Positions 10,127-62,212 of a stretch of DNA of 64,000 nt are shown one piece after another; within the stretch, counting starts at the first letter, position 1, and each line of letters opens with the position of its first letter. The DNA is taken from NCBI GenBank assembly GCA_965263035.1, contig OZ253580.1:5088001-5152000 (forward strand), in the 5' to 3' direction. This stretch comes from Acidobacteriota bacterium (GTDB taxonomy: Bacteria; Acidobacteriota; UBA6911; RPQK01; JAJDTT01). Made by a program: the position numbers and the translations under genes. The notes beneath the pieces are model-generated. The model saw nothing but the letters and a program-made list of their open reading frames with translations. It did no database searches and was not told the origin of the DNA.

Positions 10127-10868
10127 TCAACCCTTCCGAAACCGGCGGAGCCATTGGTGAACGTAGCTCGCCAGACTTCCGACCAGAAGATTCGCCGCCA
10201 AGGCAAAAGGTCCGATCCAGATGAAGCTCACCGGGTCGTAGCCGGTCTCCGGATCGAATCCGAAGATGGGTCCGGAGTAGGCCACCAGGACGGCCGTCGT
10301 GATGCCGGCCACGGTGCCGCAGACGACTCCCAGGGGGGTGGCGAAGGGGACGAAGAAAGCGAAGAAGAAGAGAGCGAACAGTGGAGTCGAGAGCAGCCCC
10401 GACGTCTTCTGGCCGACCGCCCAGATGTTTCCTGGCACGTCGTCTATAAGGGAGCCGCCCACCACCACGATCGTACCGATGGAGAACGCCATGATCTTGG
10501 CCAAGCGGGTCCGGGCGCGCCGGCTGTCCGGCAATCTCCCGAAACGGTGCAGAAAATCGCGGCTGACCACGGCAGTAATGGAGTTGACGCCCGAGTCGAC
10601 GCTGGACATGGCGGCGGCGAAAATCGCCGACACCACGAGCCCCGAGACGCCGGGAGGCAGCACGTAGGCAATGAAATAGGGAAAGACATCGTCGGCCCCC
10701 TGGCCGACGTTGATGCTGGAGGGAAGTGTCTGAGCCGCCTGCTGCACGTACCCCAGGAGGGCGAGCCCGGTGGTCCAGAGAGTGAGCACGACAGCGAGAC
10801 CTGCAATGATATTGGCGATAAAGGAGCGCCGAGCGGCCTTCAGGCTCCCCGTGGCCATATATCTTTGG
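10127..10868 (-). pseudogene. Sodium:solute symporter, 3' half (split by element E1)
   Basis: Begins QRYMAT..AARRS; GLVVSAIFAAAMSSVDSGVNS; joins in frame to 20062-20852. Confidence 0.9.
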
Positions 10869-10873
10869 CCATG

Positions 10874-11030
10874 CGGTCCAGGTGAGACCATTTATCCCCA
10901 CGCCGAAGTACTATTTATTGAGGGGATGTTATGAGGGGTCAGCTTGGATATACGGTCCAGGTGAGACCATTTATCCCCACGCCGAAGTACTATTTATTGA
11001 GGGGGATGCAATGAGGGGTCAGTTTGGACA
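10874..11030 (+). repeat. Tandem duplication with a ~79 bp period at the E1 left end
   Basis: CGGTCCAGGTGAGACCATTTATCCCCACGCCGAAGTACTATTTATTGAGGGG starts at both 10874 and 10953. Confidence 0.95.
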
Positions 11031-12012
11031 GACCAACTGGGCGGTGGCCGTCAGTGAGGATGTTCAGAAAAGAAGGCGTCAGGCCATCTACGAGTCGGAA
11101 GAGGCGGAATGGGGAATCCATTTTGCCGAAATGAGCCTCAGTCGCAACACGCGGTCCTGCTACTGATCGGCGTTGAGGCGTTTCGATGCTTGGAGGAACA
11201 CAAAAGAGGTCTGTGACGCGCTGCTGGGACGGTACATCCTCGTCCTCCTGGATAAGGGGAAGAGCGCCAGCACGATCAAGAACAGTGTCAACGCCGTCAA
11301 GTTTCGGGAGGTGGAAGGCCTGGACCGGCCAAGTCCAAAAGGCCGCATTGTGAAACAGGCCATGAAGCGTGCCATGCGTGAAGCCACGGCCAGAAGGGGA
11401 CAAGCTCAGGGACTTGAAGAGGAACAGGTCAGGAGCATCATGGTTGCCGCCGGCGGCACGGCATGGGGTGTCCGCAATCGTGCTCTGATAGCACTGGCCT
11501 ATTATCGAGGTTTGCGGATCAGTGAGGTCGTGGCCGTCAACATTGAGGATCTGACGTTCTTCCCGTCCGGGTTTGGCAAGCTGAAAATCACACGCTCGAA
11601 AACAGATCAACAAGGCCGCGGCGTTGTCATGGATCTCTGCGACCTGTCCGTCGATCCTCTTCGGGAATGGATTGCAATCTCAGGTATTAGTAAGGGTCCA
11701 CTGTTCCGTATCGTCGAGTACGGTCTAGACCATGAGCCGGTCATCGGAGAGAAGAGGTTAAGCCGATGTCAGGCAGCCAAGACCATAAAGCGGTTGGGTC
11801 GCAAGGCGGGGTTCTCGATTTCCAGTCATAGTCTGAGAAGGTCTTTCGCGATGAGGTTGACTCGGCTGGGTTTCCCCATCCAGGTTGTTGCAATCGAGGG
11901 TCGATGGAGCACAACCGATCAGGTGCTCACCTATATACAGGGGATGGAATGCACGGACTCGGCTGTCTTGAAGGTCAGGAAACGTCAACAGTCAATCCGT
12001 TTGGTCAGTTGA
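11011..12012 (+). pseudogene. Cre-like tyrosine recombinase with an in-frame TGA at 11164-11166
   Basis: GLRISE, RSKTDQ, SHSLRR, GRW and LTY catalytic motifs; upstream SRNTRSCY*SALRRFDAW is in the same frame; RBS GAGGGGG before ATG 11011. Confidence 0.8.
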
Positions 12013-12023
12013 ACTGTCCCTTT

Positions 12024-12550
12024 GTTGTTTGAAATCCATTCCAAGGTGTGCATATACTTGAAACTGTGGTAGAGGTAAGGTTTCAGAATCTCACCGATTT
12101 CTCACAAACAGTTGGGCACGGAGACTCAGTTGGAAGAGTGGCGTGTCCTTGGTGGATTGCTTCAATAGATTTTAAATCTAACGGGTTCTACTGCAAATCT
12201 CTTGCCCGTCTGAGTGCTGCGCACCGCTGTTCATCCCAACACCTAAGAACTGTCCGTAGGAATGTAGATACAGTTCAGCGGGAAGAATCCCCCGTGCAAG
12301 TCTACCGGGTTACGTGGAGACGTGACTCGATGCAAACCCTCCAAAGAGTATGTAGTGAGGTAGGGTTGGGTTCCAAGGTTCCGTTCTCTCCAGGGTTGCA
12401 TAGTCGCCAACTTCATTGAACCTTTCAGTGAAGAGCACCTAGCAAACTGCGGAATCTGGCCGTCGCACGCTCTACAAGTTCATTGTTAGGTCGTCTTCGG
12501 GCAGTATCTCCTCATTGATTTGGGGGAATAAAGCCCGAAGACTGACCAAA
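12024..12550 (+). ncRNA. Candidate large structured RNA of E1
   Basis: Many stems with G-U pairs that favour the + strand (12247-12276, 12307-12328, 12411-12433, 12489-12547); no convincing ORF. Confidence 0.45.
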
Positions 12551-12763
12551 TTAGATACAATTCATTATATGTTTTCTAAATTCCCAATAGGGAAAAAAGA
12601 AAGAAAGAGGGAAAGGGAGAAAAGACAGGGGGGTCTAAGGGGGGAATAGAAAATGAAAAATGAAAATTTACAAAATGCCGAAAATATCAGTTTGGAAAAA
12701 TGGGCAAATCCTACTTTTTACAAACTTCGACCCTATGAGAACTGATAAATGGAAAGTTGTCAC

Positions 12764-12797
12764 TTAGTAAAAATACCGGTGGTGGTACTTTTACTAA
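12764..12797. promoter_or_regulatory. 34-bp imperfect palindrome (lox-like geometry or operator)
   Basis: TTAGTAAAAATACC-GGTGGT-GGTACTTTTACTAA; arms match 13/14. Confidence 0.5.
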
Positions 12798-12872
12798 CTG
12801 CCTGCTTCAGGAAATGAAAAGTGGTAGAAAGTGGTACCTCAGCGAATTTCAGCGTTTTGGGCTGATTCTTCC

Positions 12873-14396
12873 CTACATTACCAAGACTTCCTCCGATCCA
12901 TCACCACTTGCGAATGCATAGAATGAGGGAGCAGCATCTAGCTTCAACCTTCGTTTCCACTCGCCCACGGCTAGGATGAGGCTTTGGACAACATCATCCC
13001 TGGATGCGTTGGCGGTTGATTTTCGTAGTCTACAATTTCCACCATCGTCGGTTGCCACTTGTGCTACTGACAGGGACGCTTGAAGTAGACTTCTGCTTCC
13101 CACAGTGATGCTCAAGGGACCATCCGCGGCAGCCCGTCTCAATGATGTTATGTCCTCCGTTGCGGAGGACCATCTTTGTATTCTTGGAGTGACGTGGCAA
13201 GGGGGGTCAGTGTCGAACAATTCTGCCAGTCGGAAACGGTCGCACACAATGATCCGTGGATCCCATCCCCTCACGTAGTCCACCAAGGTCTCCAAAGAGG
13301 GAATCCGTTGTCCCTGAGCAACGATCAACGATCCCTGGTCCACAAGCCGGGCATAGGAACCAGGCTGCGCCATATCCCTTTTCTCCTGATCCCGGACACT
13401 GGGTATACCTGGGCATAGGGCGACAGCCTCACAACGTCCTGACGGCCATACAGCGGTCGCCGCAGACCATGCCCTGCTCCCTCCTGCATCAATCCCAACA
13501 ACCGGTTGTCCTGCCCTTGCAGGAACATCCCGGGCAAGCGTCCGTTTCCAATCCTCCACAGTGATGACCACACCGGTCTCATCCTTCGTGGCGACGTTCA
13601 GACGGTAGGACATGAACCGGGAGCGGAGACGTGGATCCAGTCGGGCCTTGTCCCGTTCCTCAAGTAGAACAGACCTAGACTCGGGGAAGTGAATCATCAA
13701 TGGATTGCATCGTTTGATGTTCGGCCACTTGTGCCATTCGTCAGGGTCGCTCGAACCTTGGAACAATGTCACGTGGACTGATCGACTACTCCCTGCCGAA
13801 AGCAAGTCTGTCCACCAATGCCCTTCACCTGCCGGCGCTTGTGTTCCTACAAAGAGCAATCTAAGACCACTTTGAGGCTTCCCCAATGCAGTAGTCAGGG
13901 CATCAAACATCAATTTCCCATCACCAACCTTCCAGGATGCCGGTTCATCACAGAAAATCCATTTGGAATTGACAATTCCCATGGCACTTTTCCCGCTGGC
14001 GGGCAAAACTGATAATTCTGTGCGTGTTTTGGGGTGCCTAATCCTTGCGGTCAAACTATTGTCAGCTATCAGATATTCTCCAGCGTTTGGTAGGGATTCA
14101 ACCATCCGACGAAGCACTCCGAAGGTGGTCCGGCGACATTGACCTAAACTAGCGGCAACAAGGTGATTTTCTGCCTTTGCCTGGAATAGAGGACTGCCCG
14201 GAACGAGGGTTTGCAGGGCCATCCATGCCATGAGGGTCGATTTACCCTGTCCTCTTGGCGTGCTTAGACACGACGTTAAAATCCCAGGTTTTAACATCCC
14301 TTTAAGGAATTTATGCTGGAATGGTCGAAGGTTGATTAAATCCGAGTGTTTCCAGTTCATACTAAGCAACTTTGGCTTTAAATATTGGAGACACAC
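12873..14396 (-). CDS. Terminase large subunit (E1)
   Basis: Walker A PRGQGKST, Walker B IFCDE, CNP, nuclease VGIDAG and DRFR, C-terminal RDDVVQSL. Confidence 0.88.
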   Translation of the reverse strand: MCLQYLKPKLLSMNWKHSDLINLRPFQHKFLKGMLKPGILTSCLSTPRGQGKSTLMAWMALQTLVPGSPLFQAKAENHLVAASLGQCRRTTFGVLRRMVESLPNAGEYLIADNSLTARIRHPKTRTELSVLPASGKSAMGIVNSKWIFCDEPASWKVGDGKLMFDALTTALGKPQSGLRLLFVGTQAPAGEGHWWTDLLSAGSSRSVHVTLFQGSSDPDEWHKWPNIKRCNPLMIHFPESRSVLLEERDKARLDPRLRSRFMSYRLNVATKDETGVVITVEDWKRTLARDVPARAGQPVVGIDAGGSRAWSAATAVWPSGRCEAVALCPGIPSVRDQEKRDMAQPGSYARLVDQGSLIVAQGQRIPSLETLVDYVRGWDPRIIVCDRFRLAELFDTDPPCHVTPRIQRWSSATEDITSLRRAAADGPLSITVGSRSLLQASLSVAQVATDDGGNCRLRKSTANASRDDVVQSLILAVGEWKRRLKLDAAPSFYAFASGDGSEEVLVM

Positions 14397-14547
14397 GGTA
14401 TGGGGCTATCCACCTATCGCCTCCAGGGGAGCCCCTATGCACCTATTCCATGCCATACGTCACTAAAATCACTCAGTTTTAATGATGTGTTGCTAACTAA
14501 GCCATCTAATGAGCATGGGTTCTATCACCTTATGGTCGAGCTCCTGG

Positions 14548-14934
14548 TCAATTTCGAGTCCAATACCGAATTCTGTGACCCATGCCCGCCGAATTGTCAG
14601 CCTTGCTCCGGTGCAACTCTGCCATGACCGATTCCTTTACTGCGTCGGATGACAACCCCAATATCCCACACACCCATTTGAAGCTGGCGGGGCCATTCTC
14701 GTCGGACTGAACCCACAACAACGCATCGTCCCTCAGGTGTTCCATTTTGTCCCTGGGAATCACGGGCGCGCATCCCAGAGAATCCTGGATGGCAAGGCGC
14801 AACATACGGGACCAAAGCGCTATCTCCTCAGCATGCTTTCCGGTACGTTGCCTCGGCATGGTCGAGGTCGAGGTCAGATCCCGCACGTATCGCTGTACAG
14901 ACTTACCTAAGTGCTCAACTGATCCCGAGAGCAT
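14548..14934 (-). CDS. Phage-type hypothetical protein (start may be 14859)
   Basis: LAIQD..DALLWV.SD..PASFKWVCGILGL pattern; upstream of terL on the same strand. Confidence 0.6.
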   Translation of the reverse strand: MLSGSVEHLGKSVQRYVRDLTSTSTMPRQRTGKHAEEIALWSRMLRLAIQDSLGCAPVIPRDKMEHLRDDALLWVQSDENGPASFKWVCGILGLSSDAVKESVMAELHRSKADNSAGMGHRIRYWTRN

Positions 14935-14950
14935 CCGTAAACTCCAAAGT

Positions 14951-15074
14951 TAAGTAGCATAGTGATATAAGGTGTGTCAACACTAATACAAAAGTCTGGA
15001 TAATGGACCGTCCATGACTCAATCGTAGAGATTTTGTCGTGCGGTTGTCAACCTGTCATTGTCTCATGTACTAT
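14951..15074. promoter_or_regulatory. Divergent sigma70-like promoters between the terL arm and the capsid arm
   Basis: Minus strand TTGACA(14980-14975)-18-TACTTA; plus strand TTGTCA(15045)-18-TACTAT(15069). Confidence 0.45.
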
Positions 15075-15083
15075 AGTCGTCGA

Positions 15084-15389
15084 ATGTCGAGACACCATCG
15101 TTCTCTGGGGCGCGATCAGCACCGTTTGAAGCAATGGGTATTGCGCCATCGTGCTCGATATCATTGTGAGAAGTGCGGGACCAGAATTGGTATGTCGAGG
15201 CTCCCACGTGCAGGTGTCAGTGTCAGTGAGCTGCACCACACAATCCCGCTCGCATGTGGTGGTTTTCACGTCAAGTCTAATGTGGAGCTTCTATGTCGTG
15301 AATGCCACGTAAACCACCACAAACAAAAGAGATTTCAAGAACTGTCGCCCGAACGCCGGGCATGGTCCGAATACCTATCATCATACTGA
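15084..15389 (+). CDS. HNH endonuclease (packaging-associated)
   Basis: CEKCG...ELHHTIPLACGG...NVELLCRECH. Confidence 0.9.
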   Translation: MSRHHRSLGRDQHRLKQWVLRHRARYHCEKCGTRIGMSRLPRAGVSVSELHHTIPLACGGFHVKSNVELLCRECHVNHHKQKRFQELSPERRAWSEYLSSY

Positions 15390-15398
15390 GGAAACAAC

Positions 15399-16592
15399 AT
15401 GAATTCCCTCCAACGTGTCCAGAAGAATTTGAGTGAGTCTAGAGAAAAGCTAAATCAGCTTTCCATGAAATCGGATCGTACTAAGGAAGAGGAAGCCCAG
15501 TTGCTAGAGCTTCGGGCCGCTCATTCCAAGTTGGAAACGGAGTACAGAACCGCCTTGGAAGCCTCCACCGAGCCGAAGGTGATCGTGAAGGATGCCGAGA
15601 CACGCGAACTTGATGGCTTGATCTTGAAGGCCAGCGTAGGCGACGTGCTCCATGCTGCCTTGGATCAGCGGAGCACGACTGGGGCAACTCACGAGCTACA
15701 GACTCATTATGGTCTGTCTCCGCATCAAGTCGCCCTGGAGCAACTGGAAACACGTGCTGTCACTCCGGCACCTACTGACGTGGGATCGAGCCAACAGCCG
15801 ATTATTGGGCAGATTTTCCCGGATTCAATCGCCAGCTTCTTGGGTGTGGGGATGCCGGTTGTTGGAACCGGGGAAGCAACATTCACGGTCCTGACCACGG
15901 GTGCTGACGTAGGTACTCCGGCCAATAATGCAATTCAAGTGGAAACTACAGGTGCTTTCACGGCTTCCGTATTGTCTCCCAAGAGGGCGCAGAGTTCATT
16001 TTTCTGGAGCATCGAGGACGAGGCTAGATTGAGCGGCATGGAAGATGCATTACGCTCGAATCTCGGAGCGGCGTTGTCCTCCAAGTTTGACAACCTGCTC
16101 TTGAACGATACCGACGAGGGCTTGCTTTCGGGCGGCCTGACGGAACCAAGCGGCACCCCGGAACTTGCTACCTGGGTGCTTTACAAAACTGCTCTAACCT
16201 CTCAGGTGGATGGCCATTTTGCGTCCACTCCCGATCAAATTCGCCTGGTTATAGGTGGCAAAACCTACGAACAAATGGAGACGGTTTATCGAGTTGAGCC
16301 GGCGAATGGCGGAACCAACGAAAGCGCTTTTGAGCTTCTGGTTCGGAAGTCCGGCGGCGTCAGGGTCAGCAGCCACGTAGCGGCACCGAGCTCTACCATT
16401 CAGGGTGCCATTGCAGTCCGGCGGCCCAGTGCGATCCATGCCGTGATGCCGGTTTGGCGGGGCGTGACTTTGATTCCGGATCGTATTACGAAGGCCGCAA
16501 GCGGTCAAGTGATTTTAACTGCCGTTGCCTTGTGGAGCTTGAAGGTTCTTCGGGCGGATGGCTTCGGACGATTGAAGATCAAAGTAGCTTGA
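15399..16592 (+). CDS. HK97-fold major capsid protein with a coiled-coil delta domain
   Basis: N-terminal coiled coil, LETRAVT, LSPKR, C-terminal IPDRITKAASGQVILTA..VLR; similar to 53181-54443. Confidence 0.85.
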   Translation: MNSLQRVQKNLSESREKLNQLSMKSDRTKEEEAQLLELRAAHSKLETEYRTALEASTEPKVIVKDAETRELDGLILKASVGDVLHAALDQRSTTGATHELQTHYGLSPHQVALEQLETRAVTPAPTDVGSSQQPIIGQIFPDSIASFLGVGMPVVGTGEATFTVLTTGADVGTPANNAIQVETTGAFTASVLSPKRAQSSFFWSIEDEARLSGMEDALRSNLGAALSSKFDNLLLNDTDEGLLSGGLTEPSGTPELATWVLYKTALTSQVDGHFASTPDQIRLVIGGKTYEQMETVYRVEPANGGTNESAFELLVRKSGGVRVSSHVAAPSSTIQGAIAVRRPSAIHAVMPVWRGVTLIPDRITKAASGQVILTAVALWSLKVLRADGFGRLKIKVA

Positions 16593-16594
16593 CC

Positions 16595-17050
16595 ATGAAA
16601 GCTGAGACTCTGGTATCCCTCCCGGTTGAAATCCGGGAGGGCCAAGACAAGCAACCTCAGATTGTTGGGACGATCATCCAGGAAGGGCGGGCGGGATCTA
16701 TCCGCCGTGAACTGTTCACCCCTGGGAGCGTCCTATGGCCTTTTGAGGGCGTCGGCATCCTGGTAGGGCATGGCGGCCCACTCGCCGGGACCGTGCAGCC
16801 TACAAGGGAGAAAAACGGAGAGATCCGCTTCTCTGCCCCGGCTTCCCCTCAGATGGTCAAGGCGGTCGAGGGCGGGCGTAAGGGCCTGTCGGTGGAGTTT
16901 GTCGCCCTGGCAGAGTCCCGAACGGCTGGCGGTATTCGTGAGGTCCGGCGGGCATTCGTCGGGGCAGCGGCTTTGGTCACATCTGCCGAGTACACACAAG
17001 CCAAGGCGGAAATCAGGGACCAAAAGCCGGTCCAAGTGTTCTTGTTATGA
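16595..17050 (+). CDS. HK97-family prohead protease
   Basis: ELFTPGS, His in LVGHG, Ser in GLSVEF, ALVTSAEY. Confidence 0.8.
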   Translation: MKAETLVSLPVEIREGQDKQPQIVGTIIQEGRAGSIRRELFTPGSVLWPFEGVGILVGHGGPLAGTVQPTREKNGEIRFSAPASPQMVKAVEGGRKGLSVEFVALAESRTAGGIREVRRAFVGAAALVTSAEYTQAKAEIRDQKPVQVFLL

Positions 17051-18048
17051 TTTCCTTGAACCTGTCCACCCCACATCGTGAGGTTCGGTCAGCTTCCCCT
17101 GGTGATGCCGTCATTGAGGCTGTACTAGGTGGGGGTGGGTACTCCGGTACTTCTGTCCCCGGTGTCTTGGGAGCCTGTACCAGCCGATTGAGCGGCGTCC
17201 TGGCCTCCGCTGATATCGACGTTGCCCTAGTCGGAATTCTCCCGTCAATTGCTCGGCAAATTGTTTGGACCGGCGAGGTCGTCCTCTTCCTCAATCCCGA
17301 TCTTAAGCTGGAAATTGTCACGTCCTACGACATGGCCGGGAGTGCTGAGAATCGCGTCTACACCATCGACATTAACGGACCTTCCCGGAGCTTGACCTAC
17401 AAGAACATCGGGCAGGATCAAATCTGTCATGCGATTGTCCGGCCTTCCTCTATGGCACCGTGGCGGGGTGAAGGCTGGCGACAAACAGCGGGCATTGTGG
17501 CGTCCCAACTGGCTGCCGTGGACGCCGCAATCGAGCAAGAGGGTAAACAACCTCGTGGATCTTTGTTGCCGGTTGTCGCCGCAGAGAGTCCCGAAAGATT
17601 GACAAAGTTGATGGGCGCATTGATGCGCTTGAAAGGTGGATTGAGTTCGCATCCGCTGCTAGGGAGGCAAGGCGAGAATCCCGGACCCAGCCCAACGCCG
17701 GTACGCTTGCAAACAAACAGCCTGGGAGAATTGTTAAAAGCACGTGAGGAGTTGAGCTCGGCCTTGTGCGAAGCCCTGGGCGTCCCGCGTGTTTTGGTAG
17801 GATTCGGGGCCGGCGGTCAAGTCTCCAGGCCGGACGCCTTGAGGAGCTGGATTGCAACCACTGTGGGAGCATGGGCGAATACCATCAAGAGCGAGCTAGC
17901 ACGGGTGCTGGAGCGACCGGTTGTCCTGGACTTGGAACCGATCCTGGCTGGCCTGGTTCCAGTTGGACTCCGAGTTGGTGCCGCTGCGCGACTGGTCAAG
18001 GCGGGCTGGAGCATAGCGGATGCAGAACGCATCGTGAGGTTGTCATGA
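17047..18048 (+). CDS. Phage portal protein (short, divergent)
   Basis: GEV, ICHAI..PWRG, LCEALGVP, IKSELARVL; similar to the E2 portal. Confidence 0.7.
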   Translation: MISLNLSTPHREVRSASPGDAVIEAVLGGGGYSGTSVPGVLGACTSRLSGVLASADIDVALVGILPSIARQIVWTGEVVLFLNPDLKLEIVTSYDMAGSAENRVYTIDINGPSRSLTYKNIGQDQICHAIVRPSSMAPWRGEGWRQTAGIVASQLAAVDAAIEQEGKQPRGSLLPVVAAESPERLTKLMGALMRLKGGLSSHPLLGRQGENPGPSPTPVRLQTNSLGELLKAREELSSALCEALGVPRVLVGFGAGGQVSRPDALRSWIATTVGAWANTIKSELARVLERPVVLDLEPILAGLVPVGLRVGAAARLVKAGWSIADAERIVRLS

Positions 18049-24357: not shown

Positions 24358-24358
24358 G

Positions 24359-53181: not shown

Positions 53182-54443
53182 TAGACAAGTTTGAACGCCC
53201 GGAGATCAAAAGAATCTTCTCTAATCACTTTGAAATTCCAGAGACTAATTATCGTCAAAGCAACTTGACCGGATGCCGCCGCCGTATACGGATCTCGAAC
53301 GATCTCCACACCTTCCCAGATCGGAGCCACAGCGCCGGTAGCTAGTCGTCTCGTAACAATCGCCGTAGAAACATCCTTATCGGGTCCGGTTGTAGGAGCA
53401 ACCGGAAGATTTCCAGAAACACGAACGCTGGAAAGATCGGCCAAGTATTCCAGAGCCGTTCTAGTCACTCCCGCTGTCATGGTCTTTGTACTCAATTCTG
53501 GATAAAGATCGGAAGGGACCAACAGCCCCACGTCTGCCGCAGTTGCCGCATATTTTCCGTCCACCGCCCCAGTGACGGATTTCACGGCATCCGCCCACGT
53601 AAAAACATCGCTAGGAGTCGTCGGAGCCGTGATCGTTGTAAGGATTCCGGAGACATTAGGTGCCGTTCCGTTTCCCGTAATGGATTGAAGATCAATTGCA
53701 TCAGATACAGTGCTTGATAAGTCTGCCCTCAGAGTATCGTCCATCCCGTCCAACTGCGCCGAATCCTCCACAGAGAACAGATACCGCGCCGTGATCCTGG
53801 TAGGCGTCAGCACTGAGCTACTGAACGTCGCCGCTACCGCATTCTGAGCCACGCCCCGAGTCTTATTCTCTGCCGTAGCACCGGCAGTCAGAAGCGGATA
53901 TGCCGTGGTCCCAGTTGGGACCGTCGGCATGGAAACTCCGAGAAACTGCGCCGCAGAAGCGGCAAAGACTCTCCGGATTATTTGAGTCTGCCGATTCGGG
54001 AAATTTAAAGCCCCTAGAGCCGTCGCCACGTCTGACCGCTTCTCAGGTTCAAGCGCTTCCGGACCCGCCAGAGCAGCCCAGGGGAAGCGCCCAGGGGCTG
54101 CTTTCTCGCCTAACATGGCCGTCCGTAATTCAGACTCGGGAGAAGATTCGGCAAGCGGATTCTGTCCCCATGCTTCCAGCACGTAGCTAGAGAGTTTCGC
54201 TTTCCGAATGAGAGACCGAATTTCCGCTCCCTCGCCGTCTTCTCTATCAACCGGCGGGATAGCCTCATTCTCCGCGATGATGGCCGCTCTATGCCTAGCT
54301 TCAAGATCGGAAAACTCTTTCCGCAGGGTCTCGCCCTCAGATCTAATATCCTCAGTAAAGTCTGCCCCGGATAATCCAGCTATGGAATTCAGTCTTTCGC
54401 GCACCTCAGAAATTCGCAGTGTTATTTTCTGGCTTGTAGTCAT
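53181..54443 (-). CDS. HK97-fold major capsid protein (E2)
   Basis: Coiled-coil N-terminus, FLGVSMP, LTPTR, GNGTAPN..GI, VRDPYTAAASGQV. Confidence 0.88.
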   Translation of the reverse strand: MTTSQKITLRISEVRERLNSIAGLSGADFTEDIRSEGETLRKEFSDLEARHRAAIIAENEAIPPVDREDGEGAEIRSLIRKAKLSSYVLEAWGQNPLAESSPESELRTAMLGEKAAPGRFPWAALAGPEALEPEKRSDVATALGALNFPNRQTQIIRRVFAASAAQFLGVSMPTVPTGTTAYPLLTAGATAENKTRGVAQNAVAATFSSSVLTPTRITARYLFSVEDSAQLDGMDDTLRADLSSTVSDAIDLQSITGNGTAPNVSGILTTITAPTTPSDVFTWADAVKSVTGAVDGKYAATAADVGLLVPSDLYPELSTKTMTAGVTRTALEYLADLSSVRVSGNLPVAPTTGPDKDVSTAIVTRRLATGAVAPIWEGVEIVRDPYTAAASGQVALTIISLWNFKVIREDSFDLRAFKLV

Positions 54444-54459: not shown

Positions 54460-54765
54460 TTATAAATAGTTATCAGTTATGCTTATTCTAGTCGTTTTAT
54501 TTGAAAGTGTCGTTAAATACTCTCGCCATTCTACACTATCGGGGCTGATACGTGTATTATTTTCCTTGCGAGTTTTGGAAATATGACAGGGTACACATAA
54601 AGACTGGATATTGGATCTCCCATACAGAGAACCGCCAGCATTTCTAGGCTTGATATGATCCGCTTCCAGCTTCCCGCGTTTCCCGCAGCGCTGGCACTTA
54701 AAGCCCGCTTCCCGTAAGACTCGCCAGCGCAGCCGCTCCCACCTTCTGCCCTTCAATCCGCTCAT
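54460..54765 (-). CDS. HNH endonuclease (E2)
   Basis: RWERLR..CQRCG..LEADHI.P..GG..NIQSLCVPCH..KT. Confidence 0.9.
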   Translation of the reverse strand: MSGLKGRRWERLRWRVLREAGFKCQRCGKRGKLEADHIKPRNAGGSLYGRSNIQSLCVPCHISKTRKENNTRISPDSVEWREYLTTLSNKTTRISITDNYL

Positions 54766-56864
54766 GCCGCCCGTACCACTCCGCCATTCCGCCATGATCC
54801 GCCAGAATTCTTTATCCTCATGGTCTCGGCCAATCCAGCCGCAATAACTGCCGCTGAGAGACTGTCTATCCTCGATAATCCGGACCTTTTATCTAATGCC
54901 GGATTTCCGGCACCGTCATAGCGGAGACGGGAGCCAGCTACCGCACTCGACAGCATCATCGAATCGCCGTGAAATAGTTTCTTTTCCATCACGAACCGCT
55001 GGAATGCTCGAACGTCATGGGAGCCATCCGCTGTAGCACTCGCCCCGGTTCCGCGCCAGACAACCGGAGACCGGGAGCCAGCATCCGCTAGAGCCTGTTC
55101 CGTCTCTGCCCGCCGGTATCTATCCGCCCCGATCACTAGCACTCGTTCGCCAGCCAGTTTCGATAGGACAGACTGCAAAAAGACTCCGACCCGGACCATA
55201 CGCCCCTGATGGAGATTCAATTCTCCAGACTTCCTCATTAGGTCATATCGGATGCCGTCTCGACGTTGCCGAGCTTCGATCCCGGGCATCGACGGAAAAG
55301 CCCCAAAAACTTCGATCCGACCAGTTCCAGGCCATAAGGCTGTTGCGGCAGTCATAGAAGCGGACCCGCCTAGATCAATGCCCAAAACACATTTCCCGTC
55401 TCTTTCCGGTTGCGGACCGCTGCAACGCTTCCAGTCTGAAGGGGAAACGATCCTTTCCACGGATGGCGACCCCGGCAGATTCAAGTCTTGAGACCTAAAG
55501 AAAATTTCATCAGATGGAGTCGATTTAGCCCGCCTGGATTCATGCTCCATATACGCCGTGGCTTTGATGGTCCCTAGACCTGGATTAGCGTTTTCCCACT
55601 CAATTCGGTTCAGTAGGTCGCAATCCTTACTAGATGCCTGGAACAGATGCGCGACAACGCCAGCGGCTTCCCGCCTTTTCATAATTTCGGGAATGTAGGG
55701 ACCGCTCCCCCATATGGACAACGCTATAAATTTCCCGTTTTTCGCCGATACCGCAGCCCTCATGCTGGCGACTAGTTCCCGATCTCGTTCGGATAGCAAG
55801 CCCAGTTCGTCAACAATCGCTAGATCCAAGCTGGCGGAATGCCCGCCCATGCCCGAGTCACCAGCCAAAATCTCAACCTGACCATGCTTACTAACAATCT
55901 TTCCAGGCCATGGACTTCTCTTAAACAATAATGTTCTGGATAGTCCACTTGCTCCCGCTATTTGCTCAATTTGTTTCGTTAGTTCCCTCGCTTTAGCCTT
56001 GTTAACACTGCAAATTCCAGCCCGCCACCCACCTTTAACGTTTCTTAATGGCCCTACCAAGTGACCTAGGCAGAATACGGCAACTATTGCGGATTTAGCA
56101 TTCTTTCTAGCGAGACAGAGCAGCGCTTCTCTTGTCGATGGCTTTAAGCAATCACCTAGAAAATTGCGTCCAAAAGGTGGCAAAGCCATAGGCAGACCCT
56201 CTTTAGGATGCCCAGGGGGAACTATTAATGTCTCTTCTGCCCATGCTGACAACCGTTCTATCTTGGATTTCTTCCGTTTAACACTGCTACTCGGCCCTTT
56301 TCCCGGTATAACGTTGTTTTTCCGGTTGATTTTCCTCCAGGCACGAGCATTACACGCCCTAGTAGCATACTTTTTAGGTTTTTTGGTATTCTGTATCAAT
56401 TCAACGCCGCAGCCACAAGCACAGTATTTAAGTCTATTCCCTACTAGGCCAAGTCGCTTATTAGTAAGAAAAGCCTGAATTCTGCAATTATCGGTAGCGT
56501 ATAGAGTAGGTATCCCGTGGAGTTTATGTATCCGAGCTGGACGACCGCACCCGCAAGCGCAGTCCGGACCAGGATTCGGCTTTTCGTAAACCGTTTGATA
56601 TGATGCCCGATGCCGACAATTTTTTGAAGCGAATCCAGTCCATTTCCTCAGTGACTTCTCAGAGCGTGAAACCGGTTCACCACAACCGCCCCGGCAACGT
56701 GGTCTAGTCTCTGGTCTCAGTGAGTCTAGGCCACCCCTCGATCCCCCCGGTTCGGATGGATTCGGAACAGGGTCCCGGACCATTTTTTGATCCATATTCT
56801 CGTATGTACAAATTTTTGGATCATCCCCTTTGACCATCTTCGATCGAGAACCGACAAGCATCAA
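54762..56864 (-). CDS. Terminase large subunit with three N-terminal zinc-finger-like repeats
   Basis: ARKNAKS, IVDELG, WENANPGL, GIDLG, DRYR, RID; three C-x-[CG]-G-C-G...A[ST]xxC repeats. Confidence 0.88.
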   Translation of the reverse strand: MMLVGSRSKMVKGDDPKICTYENMDQKMVRDPVPNPSEPGGSRGGLDSLRPETRPRCRGGCGEPVSRSEKSLRKWTGFASKNCRHRASYQTVYEKPNPGPDCACGCGRPARIHKLHGIPTLYATDNCRIQAFLTNKRLGLVGNRLKYCACGCGVELIQNTKKPKKYATRACNARAWRKINRKNNVIPGKGPSSSVKRKKSKIERLSAWAEETLIVPPGHPKEGLPMALPPFGRNFLGDCLKPSTREALLCLARKNAKSAIVAVFCLGHLVGPLRNVKGGWRAGICSVNKAKARELTKQIEQIAGASGLSRTLLFKRSPWPGKIVSKHGQVEILAGDSGMGGHSASLDLAIVDELGLLSERDRELVASMRAAVSAKNGKFIALSIWGSGPYIPEIMKRREAAGVVAHLFQASSKDCDLLNRIEWENANPGLGTIKATAYMEHESRRAKSTPSDEIFFRSQDLNLPGSPSVERIVSPSDWKRCSGPQPERDGKCVLGIDLGGSASMTAATALWPGTGRIEVFGAFPSMPGIEARQRRDGIRYDLMRKSGELNLHQGRMVRVGVFLQSVLSKLAGERVLVIGADRYRRAETEQALADAGSRSPVVWRGTGASATADGSHDVRAFQRFVMEKKLFHGDSMMLSSAVAGSRLRYDGAGNPALDKRSGLSRIDSLSAAVIAAGLAETMRIKNSGGSWRNGGVVRAA

Positions 56865-57301
56865 CGACCACTCCCGCCACGTCTCTCGAAATTTCCACGA
56901 CGTAGCCTATCCGTCACCACTCGCACCGTTCCAGCTACCGCCCTTTGGACAAAAGCGGCAGGGACACCAAGCCGAGCCGATCCTGATGCGTTTAATTTCT
57001 CGATATGCCGCAGCCCATTAGAAACGTAGGTTTTTCCTCGTTCCAACTTGTAGCCAGTAAGGATAGCCCCGGAGGACGTTAGCCTATTCTCCCGAGCCTC
57101 CCGCAGCCCTCGAACTGTCCCATCCCCTTGCCCGCCCATCGACGGATTCCAGTTACTTGCCGTCCACGTCGATTCTTTAGGGCATTTATTATAAAGCTGG
57201 CGTGACGCTTCAAGTGTGGCGTTTACTACAGTGTTTTCGACAATTCGCCTAATCTCTTTGCGGATTGCCTGGATTTGAGCCTTTTCGCTTGCCGTGGGCA
57301 T
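56861..57301 (-). CDS. HK97 gp10-like neck/tail-completion protein
   Basis: CPKESTWTASNW..YVSNGLRHIEKLN..GS..PAAFV pattern. Confidence 0.6.
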   Translation of the reverse strand: MPTASEKAQIQAIRKEIRRIVENTVVNATLEASRQLYNKCPKESTWTASNWNPSMGGQGDGTVRGLREARENRLTSSGAILTGYKLERGKTYVSNGLRHIEKLNASGSARLGVPAAFVQRAVAGTVRVVTDRLRRGNFERRGGSGR

Positions 57302-57352
57302 ATTTTGACTCTTGGAAACGGAACAGTTACAGGGGAATGGTCATTGACCTAG

Positions 57353-59117
57353 CCCGGATATCTCATCAGAAAGATTGATAAAGGCCGCGTTTTCTGCTAT
57401 AAGTGTTGTGTAATCAATAACTTACAAAGCAGAAGGGACGCGACCTTATGACCGCAGAGTGTACCAGAATAAAGCTCAGATTTCAGGGCCTGGACGGACG
57501 GGATGTCGTGGGCCGGTTCGACGGCGGCGAGATCACCTCCGACGCCGGTGGCGTGCTCCTGCGCGAAGTGGAGCAGCGGACCCGGATTCTGGGTCGTCTG
57601 AGCGAATGCTTCACCGACTATCGAGACTCGGATCGAGTCGAACACCCGGTGGAGGCGTTGATCAAACAGCGGGTGCTGGGGCTGTGCCTGGGCTACGAGG
57701 ACCTCAACGACCACGACGAGTTGTGCCGGGACCGGCTCTTGGCGCTGTTGTGTGATCGAGATGATCTGACGGGGGAGTTCCGGCGCGTGGAGTCGGATCG
57801 AGGCAAGCCGCTGGCAGGCAAGAGCACCCTGAACCGACTGGAGCGGACTCCGTTGGAGGGACCGGAGGGCGCGTACAAGAAGATCGTGGCCGACCCGGCG
57901 GGGATGGACGAGCTGCTGCTGGAGGTGTTTGTGGAAGCGCATCCGGAGCCCCCGGAGGAGGTGATCCTGGATGTAGACGCCACGGACGATCCGCTGCATG
58001 GGAAGCAGGAGGGACGGTTCTTCCACGGCTATTACAAACGCTACTGCTACCTGCCGCTGTACGTCTTCTGTGGGGAACACCTGTTGCGTGCGCGGCTGCG
58101 CACGGCGGATCGAGGCGCGGCCCACGGGGTGGTGGCGGAGTTGGAACCAATCGTGAGGCGGCTGCGTGAAGCGTGGCCCCAGGTGCGGATCACGGTTCGA
58201 GGGGACAGTGCCTTCTCCAACGACGAGTTGATGGTCTGGTGCGAGAAGGAAGGGATCGATTACGTCCTGGGGTTGGCGCAGAACGATCGGCTGAAGCGGA
58301 GGATCGCGACCCGGATGGAGACCGTCCGGCAGTTGCAGCGGGCGATCGGGAAGGCCGTGAGGCAGTTCCAGGAACTGCGCTATCAGACGCACAAGAGTTG
58401 GTCGTGCGAGCGCCGGGTGGTGGCGAAGGTGGAGCACCTGCCCCGGGGAAAGAACCCGCGATTCATCGTGACTTCGGTCCCGGTCCAGGAATGCGATGGG
58501 CGAAGATTGTACGAGGAGGTCTACTGCGCGCGGGGAGACATGGAGAATCGGATAAAGGAACAGCAGATGGGTCTGTTTGCGGACCGCACGTCGACCCGGA
58601 AGCTGGCGGGGAATCAACTGCGGTTGTATTTCTCGGCATTCGCCTACGTGATGATGGAGACGTTGCGACGGGTGGGGCTGGCGGGGACGAAGCTGGCGCG
58701 GGCGCAGAGCTGGACCCTGCGGGTGAGATTGCTGAAGATCGGGGCACAGGTCCGGATCACCAGCCGCAAGGTCTGGTTGTCCTTTTCCGAGAGCTATCCG
58801 TATGCGGCGCTGTTGAGGACGGCTCTGACGCAAGTGCAAGCCCTCCCGCTTCGCTGTTAGCAACGGATGGAAAGAACTCTTTGGACGATGGCGACTTGGG
58901 AGTCCCCAGGATGGACTGCGCCCCGGAGTGGGCACCGGGTCGAGAGTCGTCGCTCAGAAGCGCAGGATGGGCGTCAAAAGGCTCTGGAGAAGCGCTGCAT
59001 CTGGCCGTTGGTCGGCACGTTCGAGCACGAAAACTGCCTCTTGAACTCGTATGGATAAAGAATCACCCAGACGACGGTTCAACTTCCGTTTATTGTTCTA
59101 CTGATGAGAAATGCAGG
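57353..59117 (+). mobile_element. IS1380-family element inserted into E2
   Basis: Terminal inverted repeats CCCGGATATCTCATCAG / CTGATGAGAAATGCAGG (14/17); CTAG on both flanks. Confidence 0.92.
57448..58860 (+). CDS. IS1380-family transposase
   Basis: FDGGEITSDAG, GYEDLNDH, LDVDATDDPLHG, RGDSAF, YCARGDMENRIKE. Confidence 0.95.
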   Translation: MTAECTRIKLRFQGLDGRDVVGRFDGGEITSDAGGVLLREVEQRTRILGRLSECFTDYRDSDRVEHPVEALIKQRVLGLCLGYEDLNDHDELCRDRLLALLCDRDDLTGEFRRVESDRGKPLAGKSTLNRLERTPLEGPEGAYKKIVADPAGMDELLLEVFVEAHPEPPEEVILDVDATDDPLHGKQEGRFFHGYYKRYCYLPLYVFCGEHLLRARLRTADRGAAHGVVAELEPIVRRLREAWPQVRITVRGDSAFSNDELMVWCEKEGIDYVLGLAQNDRLKRRIATRMETVRQLQRAIGKAVRQFQELRYQTHKSWSCERRVVAKVEHLPRGKNPRFIVTSVPVQECDGRRLYEEVYCARGDMENRIKEQQMGLFADRTSTRKLAGNQLRLYFSAFAYVMMETLRRVGLAGTKLARAQSWTLRVRLLKIGAQVRITSRKVWLSFSESYPYAALLRTALTQVQALPLRC

Positions 59118-59426
59118 CTAGGGGAAAAGGCTCCATTCCCCTGCAACAAGGAGATATCAAAGACAGTATAGCAAAAAGATATGACTATTTATTGGGAATA
59201 TAGCCTCGAAGCCATAGTAAACAATGAAGGTAGGCTATTCACTACTGACAGTATCACTAAGGACACTCCAAATTAAGGCTCCGAGACTATAGGGTGATGA
59301 ATCCAACTGCATTATCTCATAAAAGGTATGACTAAAAATCTTTCCAGACCAAAGAGAATAGATAAAGCGTCAGCTTATAAACGATATGCCACAACGCCAA
59401 GAATATCAGCACGAGTACAAGCAACG

Positions 59427-59691: not shown

Positions 59692-60105
59692 TCAGTCGTC
59701 GTGGTGTCCAGCGATCCGCGTCAAATCACGATAAAGGTCCCAAATATCACGAGCGATCATTGCCCCAGTTTTTCGGATAATTCTTCTCATCGTAGCTTCA
59801 ATTCGACCCTCACTAGGAGGACGGATTCCCGGAGGAAGGGTCTCGATGGGATACACATACGATTTATGTAAGTCGCTTCCATCATACTTTGTTGATTGTT
59901 CCATTATTTTTCTGAATTTATGTCTTAAGCCATCTGGAAAATCTTGTTCTCTCAGTGAAGATAGGTGGTAAATCAGCGCGTCTTTCAATCTATTCCTCAC
60001 ATCTCCCTTCCCAACGCACATAGTTTCAATCGCTAAAGTTACTCGTTCAAGAACGTCCTTTGCTTTTTCTTTGTTTCCCATCGGAACTAGACCCCCGTAA
60101 GCCAT
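59692..60105 (-). CDS. Hypothetical cargo protein (E2)
   Basis: 137-aa helical ORF closely following 60109-60513. Confidence 0.65.
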   Translation of the reverse strand: MAYGGLVPMGNKEKAKDVLERVTLAIETMCVGKGDVRNRLKDALIYHLSSLREQDFPDGLRHKFRKIMEQSTKYDGSDLHKSYVYPIETLPPGIRPPSEGRIEATMRRIIRKTGAMIARDIWDLYRDLTRIAGHHDD

Positions 60106-60108
60106 CCC

Positions 60109-60513
60109 TCACTTAGTGGCATCTCCGCAATCTTTCATGACCCGACATATATCGCTCATAGACTCTTTGATTCTTATAATTTTCATTGATTGCGATTTAT
60201 TGAGTTTACGGAGCACAGTCGCTTCGGACTGTGAAACCTTGTCGTCTGGAAACTGTTGGGATGGAATATTTGCATTATAAAACCGGATGTTTTCGCATCG
60301 GTCCAGCAATACTGGCCGTGGCTTATTCGATGACATCTCAGGTCGGAGTTCAAATTTTTTGGATTCCAAATTTTCATACCAAACATGCTGGGCAACTACT
60401 GTGACCAGCAAATACCTTGGATCAGCATCACAGGGCTTTTCAGCCTGCACCAGACCCGTGAACAGAACCGCCAGCAATGCAAAATTCTTGCCAAAGTTGC
60501 AGCCCTCACTCAT
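60109..60513 (-). CDS. Hypothetical secreted Cys-containing protein (E2)
   Basis: GGAAGGGG RBS; signal-like FALLAVLFTGLVQA. Confidence 0.6.
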   Translation of the reverse strand: MSEGCNFGKNFALLAVLFTGLVQAEKPCDADPRYLLVTVVAQHVWYENLESKKFELRPEMSSNKPRPVLLDRCENIRFYNANIPSQQFPDDKVSQSEATVLRKLNKSQSMKIIRIKESMSDICRVMKDCGDATK

Positions 60514-60779
60514 GTTCCCCTTCCTTCCTTCTCGCCCTAGTCTCCAAAATTTGCCGTATCCGCTCACGGGATATCCCGAACCGGCCACCGATCCTCTCTA
60601 ACGTCTAATCCGCAGCCCGAAGGGACCGGATGACCCGGTTCCGTATTGGCCGATGGTGTGGAACTGCTTTTTTCATGCCGCTTTATTCAGGATTTCTTCT
60701 TTTTTTATTTTTAACACTTCAACCTATAAAGTGAAACAACTTAACGATGCTTTCTCTAGTCTGGAAGATACTCAGGAAG

Positions 60780-61250
60780 GATTCTCACTCGGCCCCTTCT
60801 CTCTCCCCCTATAGATCCTGTTTCGATTACCCTGGATAGATTCAGGCAGAGAACTATCTAGCACTGTGCATGCGTTAGGAAAATACCTTCCGCACACACA
60901 GTCCTGTTCCTTGTCTGAATCTATGATCCCGCTCCGATCAGAGCCTATCAAGACCCAGGCAGAGACCCAAAAGTTGTGGATCTCATGGCGTCAGCTACTT
61001 TATCGCGGAGCAACTTCTCACACGTCATGCTCCCCTTCCGACGCTCCGAACTGGGGAAGAATCCTAGTGCATGATGCACGGCAGTGGATTCATTTTTTGC
61101 GGATTACTTACTTCCTCGATCCCTGCCGCCAAGCGGTTCGAGAAAGGTGCAATGTCACGCCCGCTCCAATCTTGAATCCAGCCTCAAGACTCCGAGTGGA
61201 TCAGACCCGGTATCCCAATCGCCTTAAGGCTGGATTCGATGGAGGGAGTA
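60780..61250 (+). ncRNA. Candidate large structured RNA of E2
   Basis: Stems 60836-60854/60906-60924 (with G-U pairs), ~61079-61128 and 61174-61184/61227-61237; motif shared with the E1 region. Confidence 0.45.
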
Positions 61251-61330
61251 TAGCAGATAGGTCTGTAAAAAAGAAGCGTTTTTCCAACTTTTTATCATAC
61301 CATTGTAAATTTAATGCTCAATGCCGAGGC

Positions 61331-61359
61331 TTGACACTGGAAAGGGAATTTAGTACAAT
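61331..61359 (+). promoter_or_regulatory. Outward-facing sigma70 promoter at the E2 right end
   Basis: TTGACA-17 bp-TACAAT, 21 bp before the crossover core. Confidence 0.75.
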
Positions 61360-61380
61360 AGGCGAGTAGTAGGGAACATA

Positions 61381-62212
61381 CTGGTTGGTGTAGAGATGCT
61401 CGTCCGGAGAACCGGTGGTAGTTGAGCCAGACCGGATCGGTCCAATTCAGAAAATCCTGGGAAGTTCCGGTCATGACGTCCCGGATACCCTTGGTTCTCG
61501 GCTGATTCTCCGCAGTCTGCCTGAAGTCGCGGTGGTATTCGCGGTACTCGTTTCTGACCGAATCCCAGAAAGCCAGGTTCTGGGAGTCGAAGTAGCCCTT
61601 GGTGATAACCGGGCGGTCCGCCATCAACTCCCAGTGGATGGCGTCGGCCGACTTCCAGGCGTAGAGTCCCCATTTACGGCTCAAGGAGAAGGCCTTGTAG
61701 CGCGCGTCGGGCGAGGCCGCCGGATTTGCGTCCTTGAAAGGGACGAAGTTCCGAATCGTATCCCCGTTTGGGAGCCGATCCAGGAGGATGTTGTTCCGCT
61801 TCGACCCCTCGAACTCGACCAGGCCCAGTTGGGGCCGGTACCAGTGGATCCCGTCCAGACTCTCGGCGTAACAGGTCACCTGCCGGCGTGGGAACTCGAG
61901 CTTCTTCCCGGTCACGAAGTGCCAGCCCCGGTAGTACATGCGATAGCGGTTTTCATCCTGGAAGATAGTGAAAGTGAAGCAGGCATTCCCCTCCCACGGA
62001 CGATCGGTCACCAGGGCCACTCCTTGGGGAATCGGGCGTTGCAACCGGAGTCGAGCCTCGCCCCGGAGTTCTTCCACCAAGCTCGGTTCCACGAACAACT
62101 CCAGCCGGGAACCGATGTCCAGGACCTCCGAGTGGAGGCTCCAGCAGAGCATGGGGAAGAGCATTGCGAGGATCCGCGGCCTACTGAAAAGCGACGTCAA
62201 GGTCCGGTTCAT
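61381..62212 (-). pseudogene. Glycoside hydrolase-like propeller gene, 5' part, with a +1 frameshift near 61416
   Basis: Signal peptide, RLELFVE, DRPWEG, YAESLDGIHW, FDSQNLAFWD; GSPDEHLYTNQ lies in a shifted frame. Confidence 0.85.

Follow-up and report, generated by a model that had tools for sequence, protein, structure and literature searches.

Can an element that encodes little more than a recombinase and the proteins of a phage head lead a mobile existence of its own? The question is raised by a stretch of 64,000 nt from an Acidobacteriota bacterium (assembly GCA_965263035.1, contig OZ253580.1, positions 5,088,001-5,152,000), hereafter called the window, to the first letter of which the positions given below refer. 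The genome, which originates from soil, is 6.2 Mb in size, 97% complete and represented by a single contig. The window has a G+C content of ~63%, with two islands of lower G+C at roughly 11-20 kb and 49-61 kb, and in these islands lie the two elements considered here, E1 and E2. An earlier interpretation made from the letters of the window (the sequence-only reading) had described them as two copies of a minimal mobile element consisting of a Cre-like recombinase and capsid genes, which would integrate with low specificity. The explanation that we favour, and hold to be fairly probable, is that the E1/E2 lineage consists of minimal, capsid-forming, helper-dependent satellites that possess a Cre-like recombinase, a head-building and packaging cassette and little else. 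Their tails would probably be borrowed from a helper phage that is not encoded by this genome.

Gene content, borders and recombinases of the elements

Family searches bore out the gene content proposed earlier for both elements, namely a recombinase, TerL, an HNH endonuclease, a capsid protein, a protease and a portal. The homologous proteins of E1 and E2 share 24.8-41.5% amino acid sequence identity and their genes are arranged in different orders, in agreement with the previous description of the elements as divergent homologs. They are not, however, two copies of one unit but two of seven diverged elements. The search of the genome with the capsid and recombinase of E1 as queries, and then with all E1 and E2 proteins, led to the identification of at least seven recombinase-plus-head elements (E1, E2, A, B, C, D and F; 25-73% protein identity), which occupy seven different places in the genome and among which near-identical copies at separate sites were not encountered. 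In addition, the genome harbours remnants: lone portal fragments occur at five places, and there are further recombinase genes. The G+C content did not delimit the other five elements.

To delineate the common content, all open reading frames (ORFs) of at least 45 aa were clustered from 12 elements, of which seven belong to this genome and five to others (six genomes in total). TerL, capsid, protease and portal are each present in 12 of the 12 elements, the HNH endonuclease, located beside the TerL or capsid gene, in 11, and the Cre-like recombinase in ten. Beyond this core, no family occurs in more than five elements: a P-loop protein was found in five and a 128-aa ORF in four, and the other ORF families are either private to one or two elements or artefacts of overlapping frames. 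The sharing of TerL, capsid, protease and portal by 12 elements from six genomes speaks for the earlier proposal that they form a distinct family of satellite-like elements with heads of their own making.

The borders of E1, E2, B, D and F were determined by comparing attL and attR with the empty site in a sister genome, which for E1 and E2 was the closest one. E1 is 9,199 bp in length, with cores at 10863 and 20062, and E2 is 12,225 bp in length, with cores at 49156 and 61381; subtraction of a 1,774-bp insertion sequence (IS) leaves 10,451 bp. The exact ends and the sizes suggested before (9.2 kb and ~10.5 kb net of the IS) thus proved correct. B, D and F measure 10,556, 9,314 and 9,897 bp, respectively, and all five bounded units fall within 9.2-10.6 kb when E2 is counted without the IS. 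At this size, no capsid-forming mobile element known so far would be smaller, and the gene content is close to the minimal set required to build and fill a phage head. The multiplicity of the elements is accompanied by turnover: the capsid is present in five of the nine genomes of the genus, the genes split by E1 and by E2 are both intact in all eight sister genomes, and none of the five bounded elements of the genome under study (G000) occupies the corresponding site in any sister genome searched.

In all five resolved elements attL, attR and the empty site have a common core of 6-11 bp. It is 6-7 bp long in E1, E2 and F, and 11 bp long in D and B, where it is flanked by more matching stretches. 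The core of E1 is CTTTGG (attL, 10863-10868, at the junction with the interrupted symporter gene; attR, 20062-20067), the only hexamer common to attL, attR and the empty site of the sister genome, and that of E2 is CTGGTTG (attL, 49156-49162; attR, 61381-61387). Around the core, attP resembles attB over about 20-38 bp in five of the five bounded elements; in the case of E2 both sites contain GTAGGGAA..CTGGTTG..ATGTTC and match at ~24 of 38 positions, as judged by eye. No transposon-type target-site duplication was detected at the five resolved elements. Since attP resembles attB beyond the core and such duplications are absent, the elements appear to integrate site-specifically, each diverged recombinase having its own site, and the interruption of protein-coding genes by E1, E2 and F reflects the position of specific sites within conserved coding motifs. 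The element-side arms of attL and attR of E1 are imperfectly inverted copies of each other (21 of 30 columns match) on either side of the 6-bp core, an arrangement that is lox-like.

The designation of the recombinases as Cre-like is well founded. The best solved relatives of the E1 enzyme are Cre and Tre (E 7e-14 to 1e-12), followed by a Xer-like protein (E 7e-10), and the residues R, K (in RSKTDQ), H, R, W and Y are invariant across eight aligned recombinases (E1 and seven homologues). In the catalytic set the place of the second His is taken by Trp, and there is an RSKTDQ lysine hairpin. The recombinases of E1 (11011-12012, + strand; E 1.9e-19) and E2 (49200-50174, + strand; E 6e-13) match PF00589 only, no Arm-DNA-bind domain being matched; the latter is a protein of 324 aa with an open frame, the RRSKTDQ, HxxR, GGW and Y motifs of which align with the family. 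The family is small, comprising 41 proteins at E<=1e-10 in the protein collection, including the window's own protein, and the best other member is 42% identical; the recombinases of the seven elements share 27-42% identity with that of E1. The likeness to the Cre/loxP system of P1 thus extends from the best solved matches and the Trp in place of the second His to the inverted arms of E1 around a 6-bp spacer, whereas the enzymes described here are integrases of chromosomal elements, their identity to Cre is low, and E1 has extra tandem arm copies. As enzymes for which natural attP/attB pairs have been defined, these recombinases may find use as orthogonal tools for recombination.

The true frame of the E1 recombinase begins near 11011 and comprises 333 codons, the 52nd of which is an in-frame TGA (11164-11166); the ORF that is open from the TTG at 11173 encodes 279 aa. 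The residues upstream of the TGA are conserved with the N-terminal residues of seven homologues. The TGA may represent either a nonsense mutation or a readthrough site and, because the homologues have R, K, N, Q or L in its place, the enzyme seems to be either truncated or dependent on readthrough. Hence, E1 may no longer be mobile.

Missing modules and a possible life cycle

The ORFs of the bounded units showed no match to tail, Rep, AlpA, TerS, lysis or defence families in Pfam, PHROGs, NCBIfam and PADLOC, and no AlpA, MerR or Stl-type regulator was matched in the first three of these databases by any ORF of at least 50 aa. The search for a primase-replicase in E1, E2, B, D and F was negative, and the orphan ORFs of these five elements have no match in Pfam, PHROGs or PADLOC, except for one PHROG of unknown function. 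Neither E1 nor E2 contains iteron-like arrays detectable by Tandem Repeats Finder, and no cos site was identified. The sequence-only reading had stated that tail, Rep, TerS and lysis genes are all missing. This holds for tail and Rep genes within the bounded units, and the search of the unassigned ORFs for Rep or TerS was likewise without a match. The lack of TerS means that none is recognisable, candidates being the 128-aa ORF of E1, on account of its position, and the N-terminal extension of E2 TerL; as for lysis, a membrane ORF of E2 is a possible candidate.

Tail genes are absent not only from the inside of every bounded unit. PF10145 (tape measure), PF04984 (sheath), PF04865 (Baseplate_J) and PF05709 (Sipho_tail) gave 0 matches in the whole genome, control genomes responding to the same search, and PF10145, the one marker tested in the genus, gave none in its nine genomes. 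Because the four tail families have no match in the genome and PF10145 has none in the genus, a resident helper is unlikely, with the reservation that four families do not cover all tails. The presence of seven copies in one genome together with the lack of a tail gene in the genus, as judged by this one marker, turns the source of the tails into a sharp question.

By analogy, the elements probably work like phage-inducible chromosomal islands that form capsids (cf-PICIs). The anatomy of the att sites suggests that the recombinase would join a lox-like attP to one specific chromosomal site and would excise the element in circular form. The trigger for induction would probably be infection by a helper phage, and small procapsids would then be formed, a size of T=4 being consistent with that of the genome. 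In HK97-like phages, an HNH endonuclease encoded beside TerL is associated with cos-type cutting, and the location of the HNH gene next to that of TerL suggests the same for the elements described here: TerL and HNH would cut the element DNA at a cos-type site and subsequently package it. The filled heads would then receive tails, and probably also lysis functions, from a non-resident helper phage; the head-completion protein of E1, if it acts as its relatives do, implies that the vertex is made ready to receive a tail. If the elements replicate at all, they would rely on the host or the helper to do so.

A number of observations weigh against such satellites. No TerS, AlpA/Xis, repressor or Rep was recognised among the ORFs of the bounded units, so that induction, packaging specificity and amplification are left without genes. 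A head-completion or adaptor protein was not recognised in B, D and F, and E2 has a weak candidate only (phrog_169, E 0.0017). The 121-aa protein, encoded between protease and portal and a candidate for the adaptor, has no useful match among PDB sequences in a profile search, and its model (pLDDT 65) has no fold match. Clear inverted arms were seen in E1 only, the att sites of E2, B, D and F showing short or offset symmetry. Several copies are damaged: the recombinase frame of E1 contains a TGA, element A is broken, and both C and E2 contain an IS. A related locus outside the genus, L059 of genome G389, adjoins a tape-measure gene and four further tail-like ORFs just past its integrase. No helper phage is known, the tape-measure marker is absent from all nine genus genomes, and excision, packaging, small heads and helper dependence are what we infer from gene content and att structure.

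Competing explanations and known systems

A broader explanation, which is put forward only tentatively, takes the cassette itself (TerL, HNH, capsid, an optional AAA_33-like P-loop protein, protease, the 121-aa protein and portal) as the mark of a widespread, unnamed lineage of 9-10-kb "head-only" replicons. The maintenance module of these replicons would be swapped freely between a Cre-like recombinase, a P4-type integrase, a plasmid replicase and a helicase. The lineage would spread efficiently in the genus (seven independent acquisitions in one genome) even though no tail was found, the tails being captured extracellularly from unrelated, non-resident phages or made dispensable by some tail-independent route, and the Cre-like enzymes would home to conserved coding motifs of multi-copy families such as sodium:solute symporters. 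Within the genus, the cassette always adjoins a Cre-like recombinase. Outside it, P4-type integrases with Arm-DNA-bind_3 were found in L034, L035, L059-L062, L071 and L074, an AAA_25 helicase accompanies the cassette in L035 and L073, and L060 carries a DNA methylase as cargo. Finally, L075, a contig of 9,490 bp with a 99-bp terminal repeat, encodes a PF03090 replicase, no integrase and the same head cassette, in which the AAA_33-like protein is 252 aa long. Its terminal repeat, being a usual sign of a closed circle or of terminal redundancy, would make this relative episome-like. Another locus, L069, was considered as a wrap-around circle and rejected, its ends being merely similar and not identical. 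One head cassette is thus combined with at least four different maintenance modules.

Further relatives were sought in several collections. In the samples examined the capsid proved rare: it was found in five of 41 related genomes and, with four candidates per genome scored, in six of 401 genomes sampled from the phylum. The species-level genome collection yielded five loci in records titled Acidobacteriota, Bryobacterales and, in one case, Dehalococcoidia, and IMG/VR contained six contigs of 5.4-13.6 kb with related loci, a search of IMG/VR with the E2 capsid alone giving no match. In the metagenome scan, capsid alignment A2 found none and alignment A7 three short loci. A profile search detected at least 323 capsid relatives at E<=1e-20 (8,000 candidates scored). 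Among 118 listed relatives outside this genome, the longest contig measures 9-10 kb for 19, 8-9 kb for five and 10-11 kb for two, a peak that fits a discrete free form of 9-10 kb. Of 50,697 phage records, none matches the E1 capsid, E2 TerL has only matches below 60% identity there, and a capsid profile search against PDB sequences returned nothing useful.

Transfer without any helper, by means of tail-less, DNA-filled heads or of particles resembling gene transfer agents (GTAs), which would carry element or host DNA into the cell by another route, seems rather unlikely. The head-completion protein of E1 belongs to a family the known role of which is to prepare the portal vertex for tail attachment, and we know of no bacterial virus or GTA with portal, terminase and HK97 capsid that delivers its DNA without a tail. 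The absence of tail markers from the genome and of a tape-measure gene from the nine genus genomes would suit this explanation, although a virulent helper would leave no genomic trace either. Two further points in its favour are the frequent gain suggested by the occurrence of elements in five of nine genus genomes and by the bounded elements that G000 does not share with the sisters searched, and the fact that most members are without recognisable tail-docking proteins. GTAs encode tails, possess no integrase, reside at a fixed, vertically inherited locus and package host DNA. The elements resemble GTAs of the RcGTA type in the compact cluster of TerL, portal, protease and capsid and in the small HK97-type heads predicted here, but differ from them in being mobile units with a recombinase and no tail genes, which are not vertically fixed, as the empty sites in sister species demonstrate.

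Low target specificity of a transposon-like element, as assumed by the sequence-only reading, is distinctly improbable. Some observations would suit it: E1, E2 and F interrupt protein-coding and not tRNA genes, their identity cores are only 6-7 bp long, the seven elements lie at seven places, and Cre-type enzymes are without an arm-binding domain. Recombinases that are only 27-42% identical to that of E1 would nevertheless be expected to use different sites through different specificities, attP matches attB outside the core in five of five resolved cases, and neither duplicated target flanks nor near-identical copies at different sites were found. The earlier assumption therefore gives way to integration at a site proper to each recombinase, as the att comparison suggests.

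That the elements are ordinary members of the described cf-PICI family is very improbable, similar as the strategy of an own head and a borrowed tail may be. By the SatelliteFinder definition, a cfPICI has 11 core components, of which the types contain 9-11, and tail and holin genes are forbidden (PMC10085698). The elements resemble cf-PICIs (~10-15 kb when integrated) in having their own TerL, HNH, HK97-type capsid, protease, portal and, in the case of E1, a head-tail joining part and in lacking tail and holin genes, as the model requires, the supply of tails by a helper phage being suggested here by the genes. Six core functions are common to both (integrase, TerL, HNH, capsid, protease and portal), and E1 has a connector protein as well. 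On the other hand, an AlpA-type or other regulator, a primase-replicase and a TerS were not found in Pfam, PHROGs and NCBIfam searches and, because none of these was recognised, the elements are not filed as cf-PICIs: they possess about 7 of the 11 components, as counted from the family searches. Moreover, their integrase is Cre-like and not of the phage type, the unit is smaller, the gene order is TerL, HNH, capsid, protease, portal, with the portal following capsid and protease, no resident helper was detected, and the E1 capsid is unmatched in the phage records. Acidobacteriota are not among the cfPICI host groups named in the accessible text of PMC10085698.

Two other groups deserve comparison. 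Mini genomes of 5-11.6 kb with an HK97-fold capsid have been described from metagenomes as a "twilight zone"; they often encode an integrase or RepA, have no tail genes, and for them a satellite hypothesis was raised (PMC13669383, main text). The elements described here are like them in size and in the HK97-fold capsid, and units of 9.2-10.6 kb fit the T=4 capacity of ~10 kb projected in that text. The group treated there in detail is encapsulin-like, without portal, terminase and packaging genes, whereas the elements of the present lineage have TerL, HNH and portal, and the main text of PMC13669383 holds no description of this lineage that we met. No published description of phage satellites in Acidobacteriota, or of this lineage, was found in open-access text; the phylum is one of the most abundant in soil. 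The satellites of the Streptomyces Mulch and Flayer systems reportedly lack key replication genes and are said to have been isolated as free, virulent particles with a known helper. According to their published description, these satellites encode encapsidation machinery (PMC10690885); unlike them, the present elements are integrated by a recombinase and have no known helper.

The idea that such loci are decayed tailed prophages that have lost their tail, lysis and replication modules draws on the broken element A, the portal fragments at five places, the TGA of the E1 recombinase and L059. In L059 the tail block is located at 16400-24900, an extra HK97-like capsid ORF (6233-7537) is found just before TerL, and the whole has the same high G+C content. 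The second copy in the same genome (G389), L060, shares with L059 the region from TerL to portal (86-91% DNA identity) and the integrase (79%), not the tail block, and the tail proteins of L059 have no homologue in the genome of the window or in the other loci. The tail block is best taken as neighbouring DNA, possibly of a helper or helper remnant; alternatively, the locus may be a composite phage, the cassette being embedded in a helper-like prophage. As for the possibility that homologous head modules commonly sit beside tails, one relative, L059, is so placed, and its tail genes lie outside the unit shared with the sister copy. Decay is very improbable, given that the same content recurs in 12 of 12 elements with proteins only 25-70% identical and from two phyla, that exact borders, at which the att site directly adjoins the recombinase at one end and the head cassette at the opposite end, leave no room for lost modules in five units all of 9.2-10.6 kb, that the two G389 copies have in common only the TerL-to-portal region and the integrase, and that an episomal relative of 9.49 kb with a terminal repeat has the same cassette.

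Genes of E1 and E2 and further observations

E1 begins with a tandem repeat of two copies of a ~79-bp unit (10865-11033, + strand; repeat families D1 and D2). Each copy contains a half-site-like recombinase arm (..CGGTCCAGGTGAGACC..), and the second copy also contains the start codon of the recombinase. A 38-nt exact pattern of this repeat was found twice, as compared with 0 expected from shuffles. The repeat was considered as a replication origin and rejected, given that the unit occurs no more than twice and extends over the recombinase start and the att arm. An Rfam search of the window gave no match, and the window contains no tRNA genes.

Downstream of the recombinase, TerL of E1 (507 aa; 12873-14396, - strand) matches phrog_9 with E 6.8e-41. 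Directly upstream of its gene, in the position of TerS, lies the 128-aa ORF (14548-14934, - strand), homologues of which occupy the same position in four of the 12 elements and three more of which are present in the protein collection; its helical model (pLDDT 74.7) has no match at E<=0.001 in a fold search. It is followed by the HNH endonuclease (15039-15389, + strand; PF01844, E 2.8e-8), which is matched by fifteen PHROG HNH families, and by the major capsid protein of HK97 type (397 aa; 15399-16592, + strand), which has an N-terminal coiled-coil region and shares 31.5% identity with the E2 capsid (E 1e-45). The prohead protease (16454-17050, + strand), with a likely start near 16592, exhibits 41.5% identity to that of E2 and clusters with the product of L035:11308-11898, which matches Peptidase_S78 (E 1.9e-12). 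The portal (333 aa; 17047-18048, + strand) matches PF04860 weakly (E 0.0041) and clusters with the portals of all 12 elements. Between the portal gene and the head-completion gene, a 183-aa ORF (18045-18596, + strand) is a candidate for the head-tail adaptor by its position; it has no family match and no profile match to the 121-aa family. The earlier claim of neck proteins is borne out for E1 by the head-completion or head-closure protein (18569-18943, + strand), which matches PF05521 (Phage_HCP) with E 3.6e-9 and 37.6 bits, above the cut-off of 25, as well as phrog_25 (Hc1); in the case of E2 the match is weak, as stated above. A further ORF of E1, of 151 aa (19121-19576, - strand), is an orphan, possibly cargo, with no match in Pfam, PHROGs or PADLOC. 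A search of sequencing runs located runs in which E1 is present.

The gene interrupted by E1 encodes a sodium:solute symporter, the C-terminal half of which (10127-10862, - strand) covers profile positions 223-406 of PF00474 and the N-terminal half (20068-20942, - strand) positions 1-172. Three symporter contexts were observed in the genome: E1 lies inside one such gene, F lies inside another at a different motif (L028, 3461-3770 with 13661-15289), and a portal remnant is located directly 3' of a third (genome positions ~2,068,758-2,071,380). The genome has many paralogues of this family, and the pattern may reflect either chance or targeting.

E2 interrupts a gene with no Pfam family match, the C-terminal half (48445-49162, - strand) and N-terminal half (61388-62242, - strand) of which are contiguous in the sister genomes. 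Next to its recombinase there is a 170-aa ORF (50182-50694, - strand) with hydrophobic N-terminal segments and no family match in Pfam, PHROGs or PADLOC, a membrane protein that could be a candidate lysis or exclusion gene. The portal (371 aa; 50845-51960, - strand) matches PF04860 (E 1.4e-8) and phrog_12. The conserved 121-aa ORF (51927-52292, - strand), the candidate head-tail adaptor between protease and portal, was aligned with homologues from eight elements. The prohead protease (150 aa; 52283-52735, - strand) clusters with the S78-type protease of L035. It is accompanied by the small P-loop protein (GPAGAGKS; 52732-53181, - strand), which is AAA_33- or zeta-kinase-like; the nearest Atlas clusters are AAA_33 and mostly viral, to be taken as a lead only, and the L075 homologue matches PF13671 weakly (E 2.8e-4). 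The major capsid protein (420 aa; 53181-54443, - strand) matches PF05065 (E 3.7e-8) and the HNH endonuclease (54460-54795, - strand) matches PF01844 (E 2.4e-10) and phrog_589 (E 4.5e-21).

TerL of E2 (700 aa; 54762-56864, - strand) matches PF20441 and, over residues 165-689, phrog_9 (E 4.4e-48). Its N-terminal ~200 aa are Cys-rich, with three CxCGCG...C..A repeats, and are without a homologue, both in the other elements and in the rest of the genome; this extension is possibly a fused DNA-recognition (TerS-like) domain. The neighbouring 146-aa ORF (56861-57301, - strand) is the weakly neck- or tail-completion-like protein with the phrog_169 match. The IS (57349-59122, + strand), with a DDE_Tnp_1_4 transposase at 57448-58860 (PF13701, E 2.6e-148), is inserted directly upstream of the late gene block and parts it from its upstream DNA. 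It has 13 further full-length copies in the genome and is also found within elements A and C. Two orphan ORFs of 137 and 159 aa (59692-60588, - strand), possibly cargo, have no match in Pfam, PHROGs or PADLOC.

Among the other elements of the genome, C is ~11.9 kb long and A is broken by the IS and by a small repeat. The closest pair is formed by A and E1, with capsids 73% identical (L024 4989-10674 versus window 11011-18048); the head block of A is oppositely oriented relative to the recombinase, and A is without the adaptor and head-completion genes of E1. In the E2-like group, the recombinase is found on either side of the cassette. A locus of sister genome G001 (L032) is a mosaic, with an E1-like capsid (61%) and E2-like TerL, P-loop protein, protease and portal (40-60%), which indicates recombination between sub-lineages. 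An island at genome positions ~5,643,000-5,662,000 (L029, L030) contains three more Cre-like recombinase genes and a portal fragment and looks like a graveyard or hotspot of this family.

Finally, a repeat of ~170 bp, resembling miniature inverted-repeat elements, is present in 172 copies in the genome, and copies 96-98% identical to it occur in all five sister genomes searched. Two copies lie in the window (3502-3669 and 9926-10092) and three in L024 (2998-3166, 7029-7200 and 12457-12625). The portal gene of element A is split by one of the copies.

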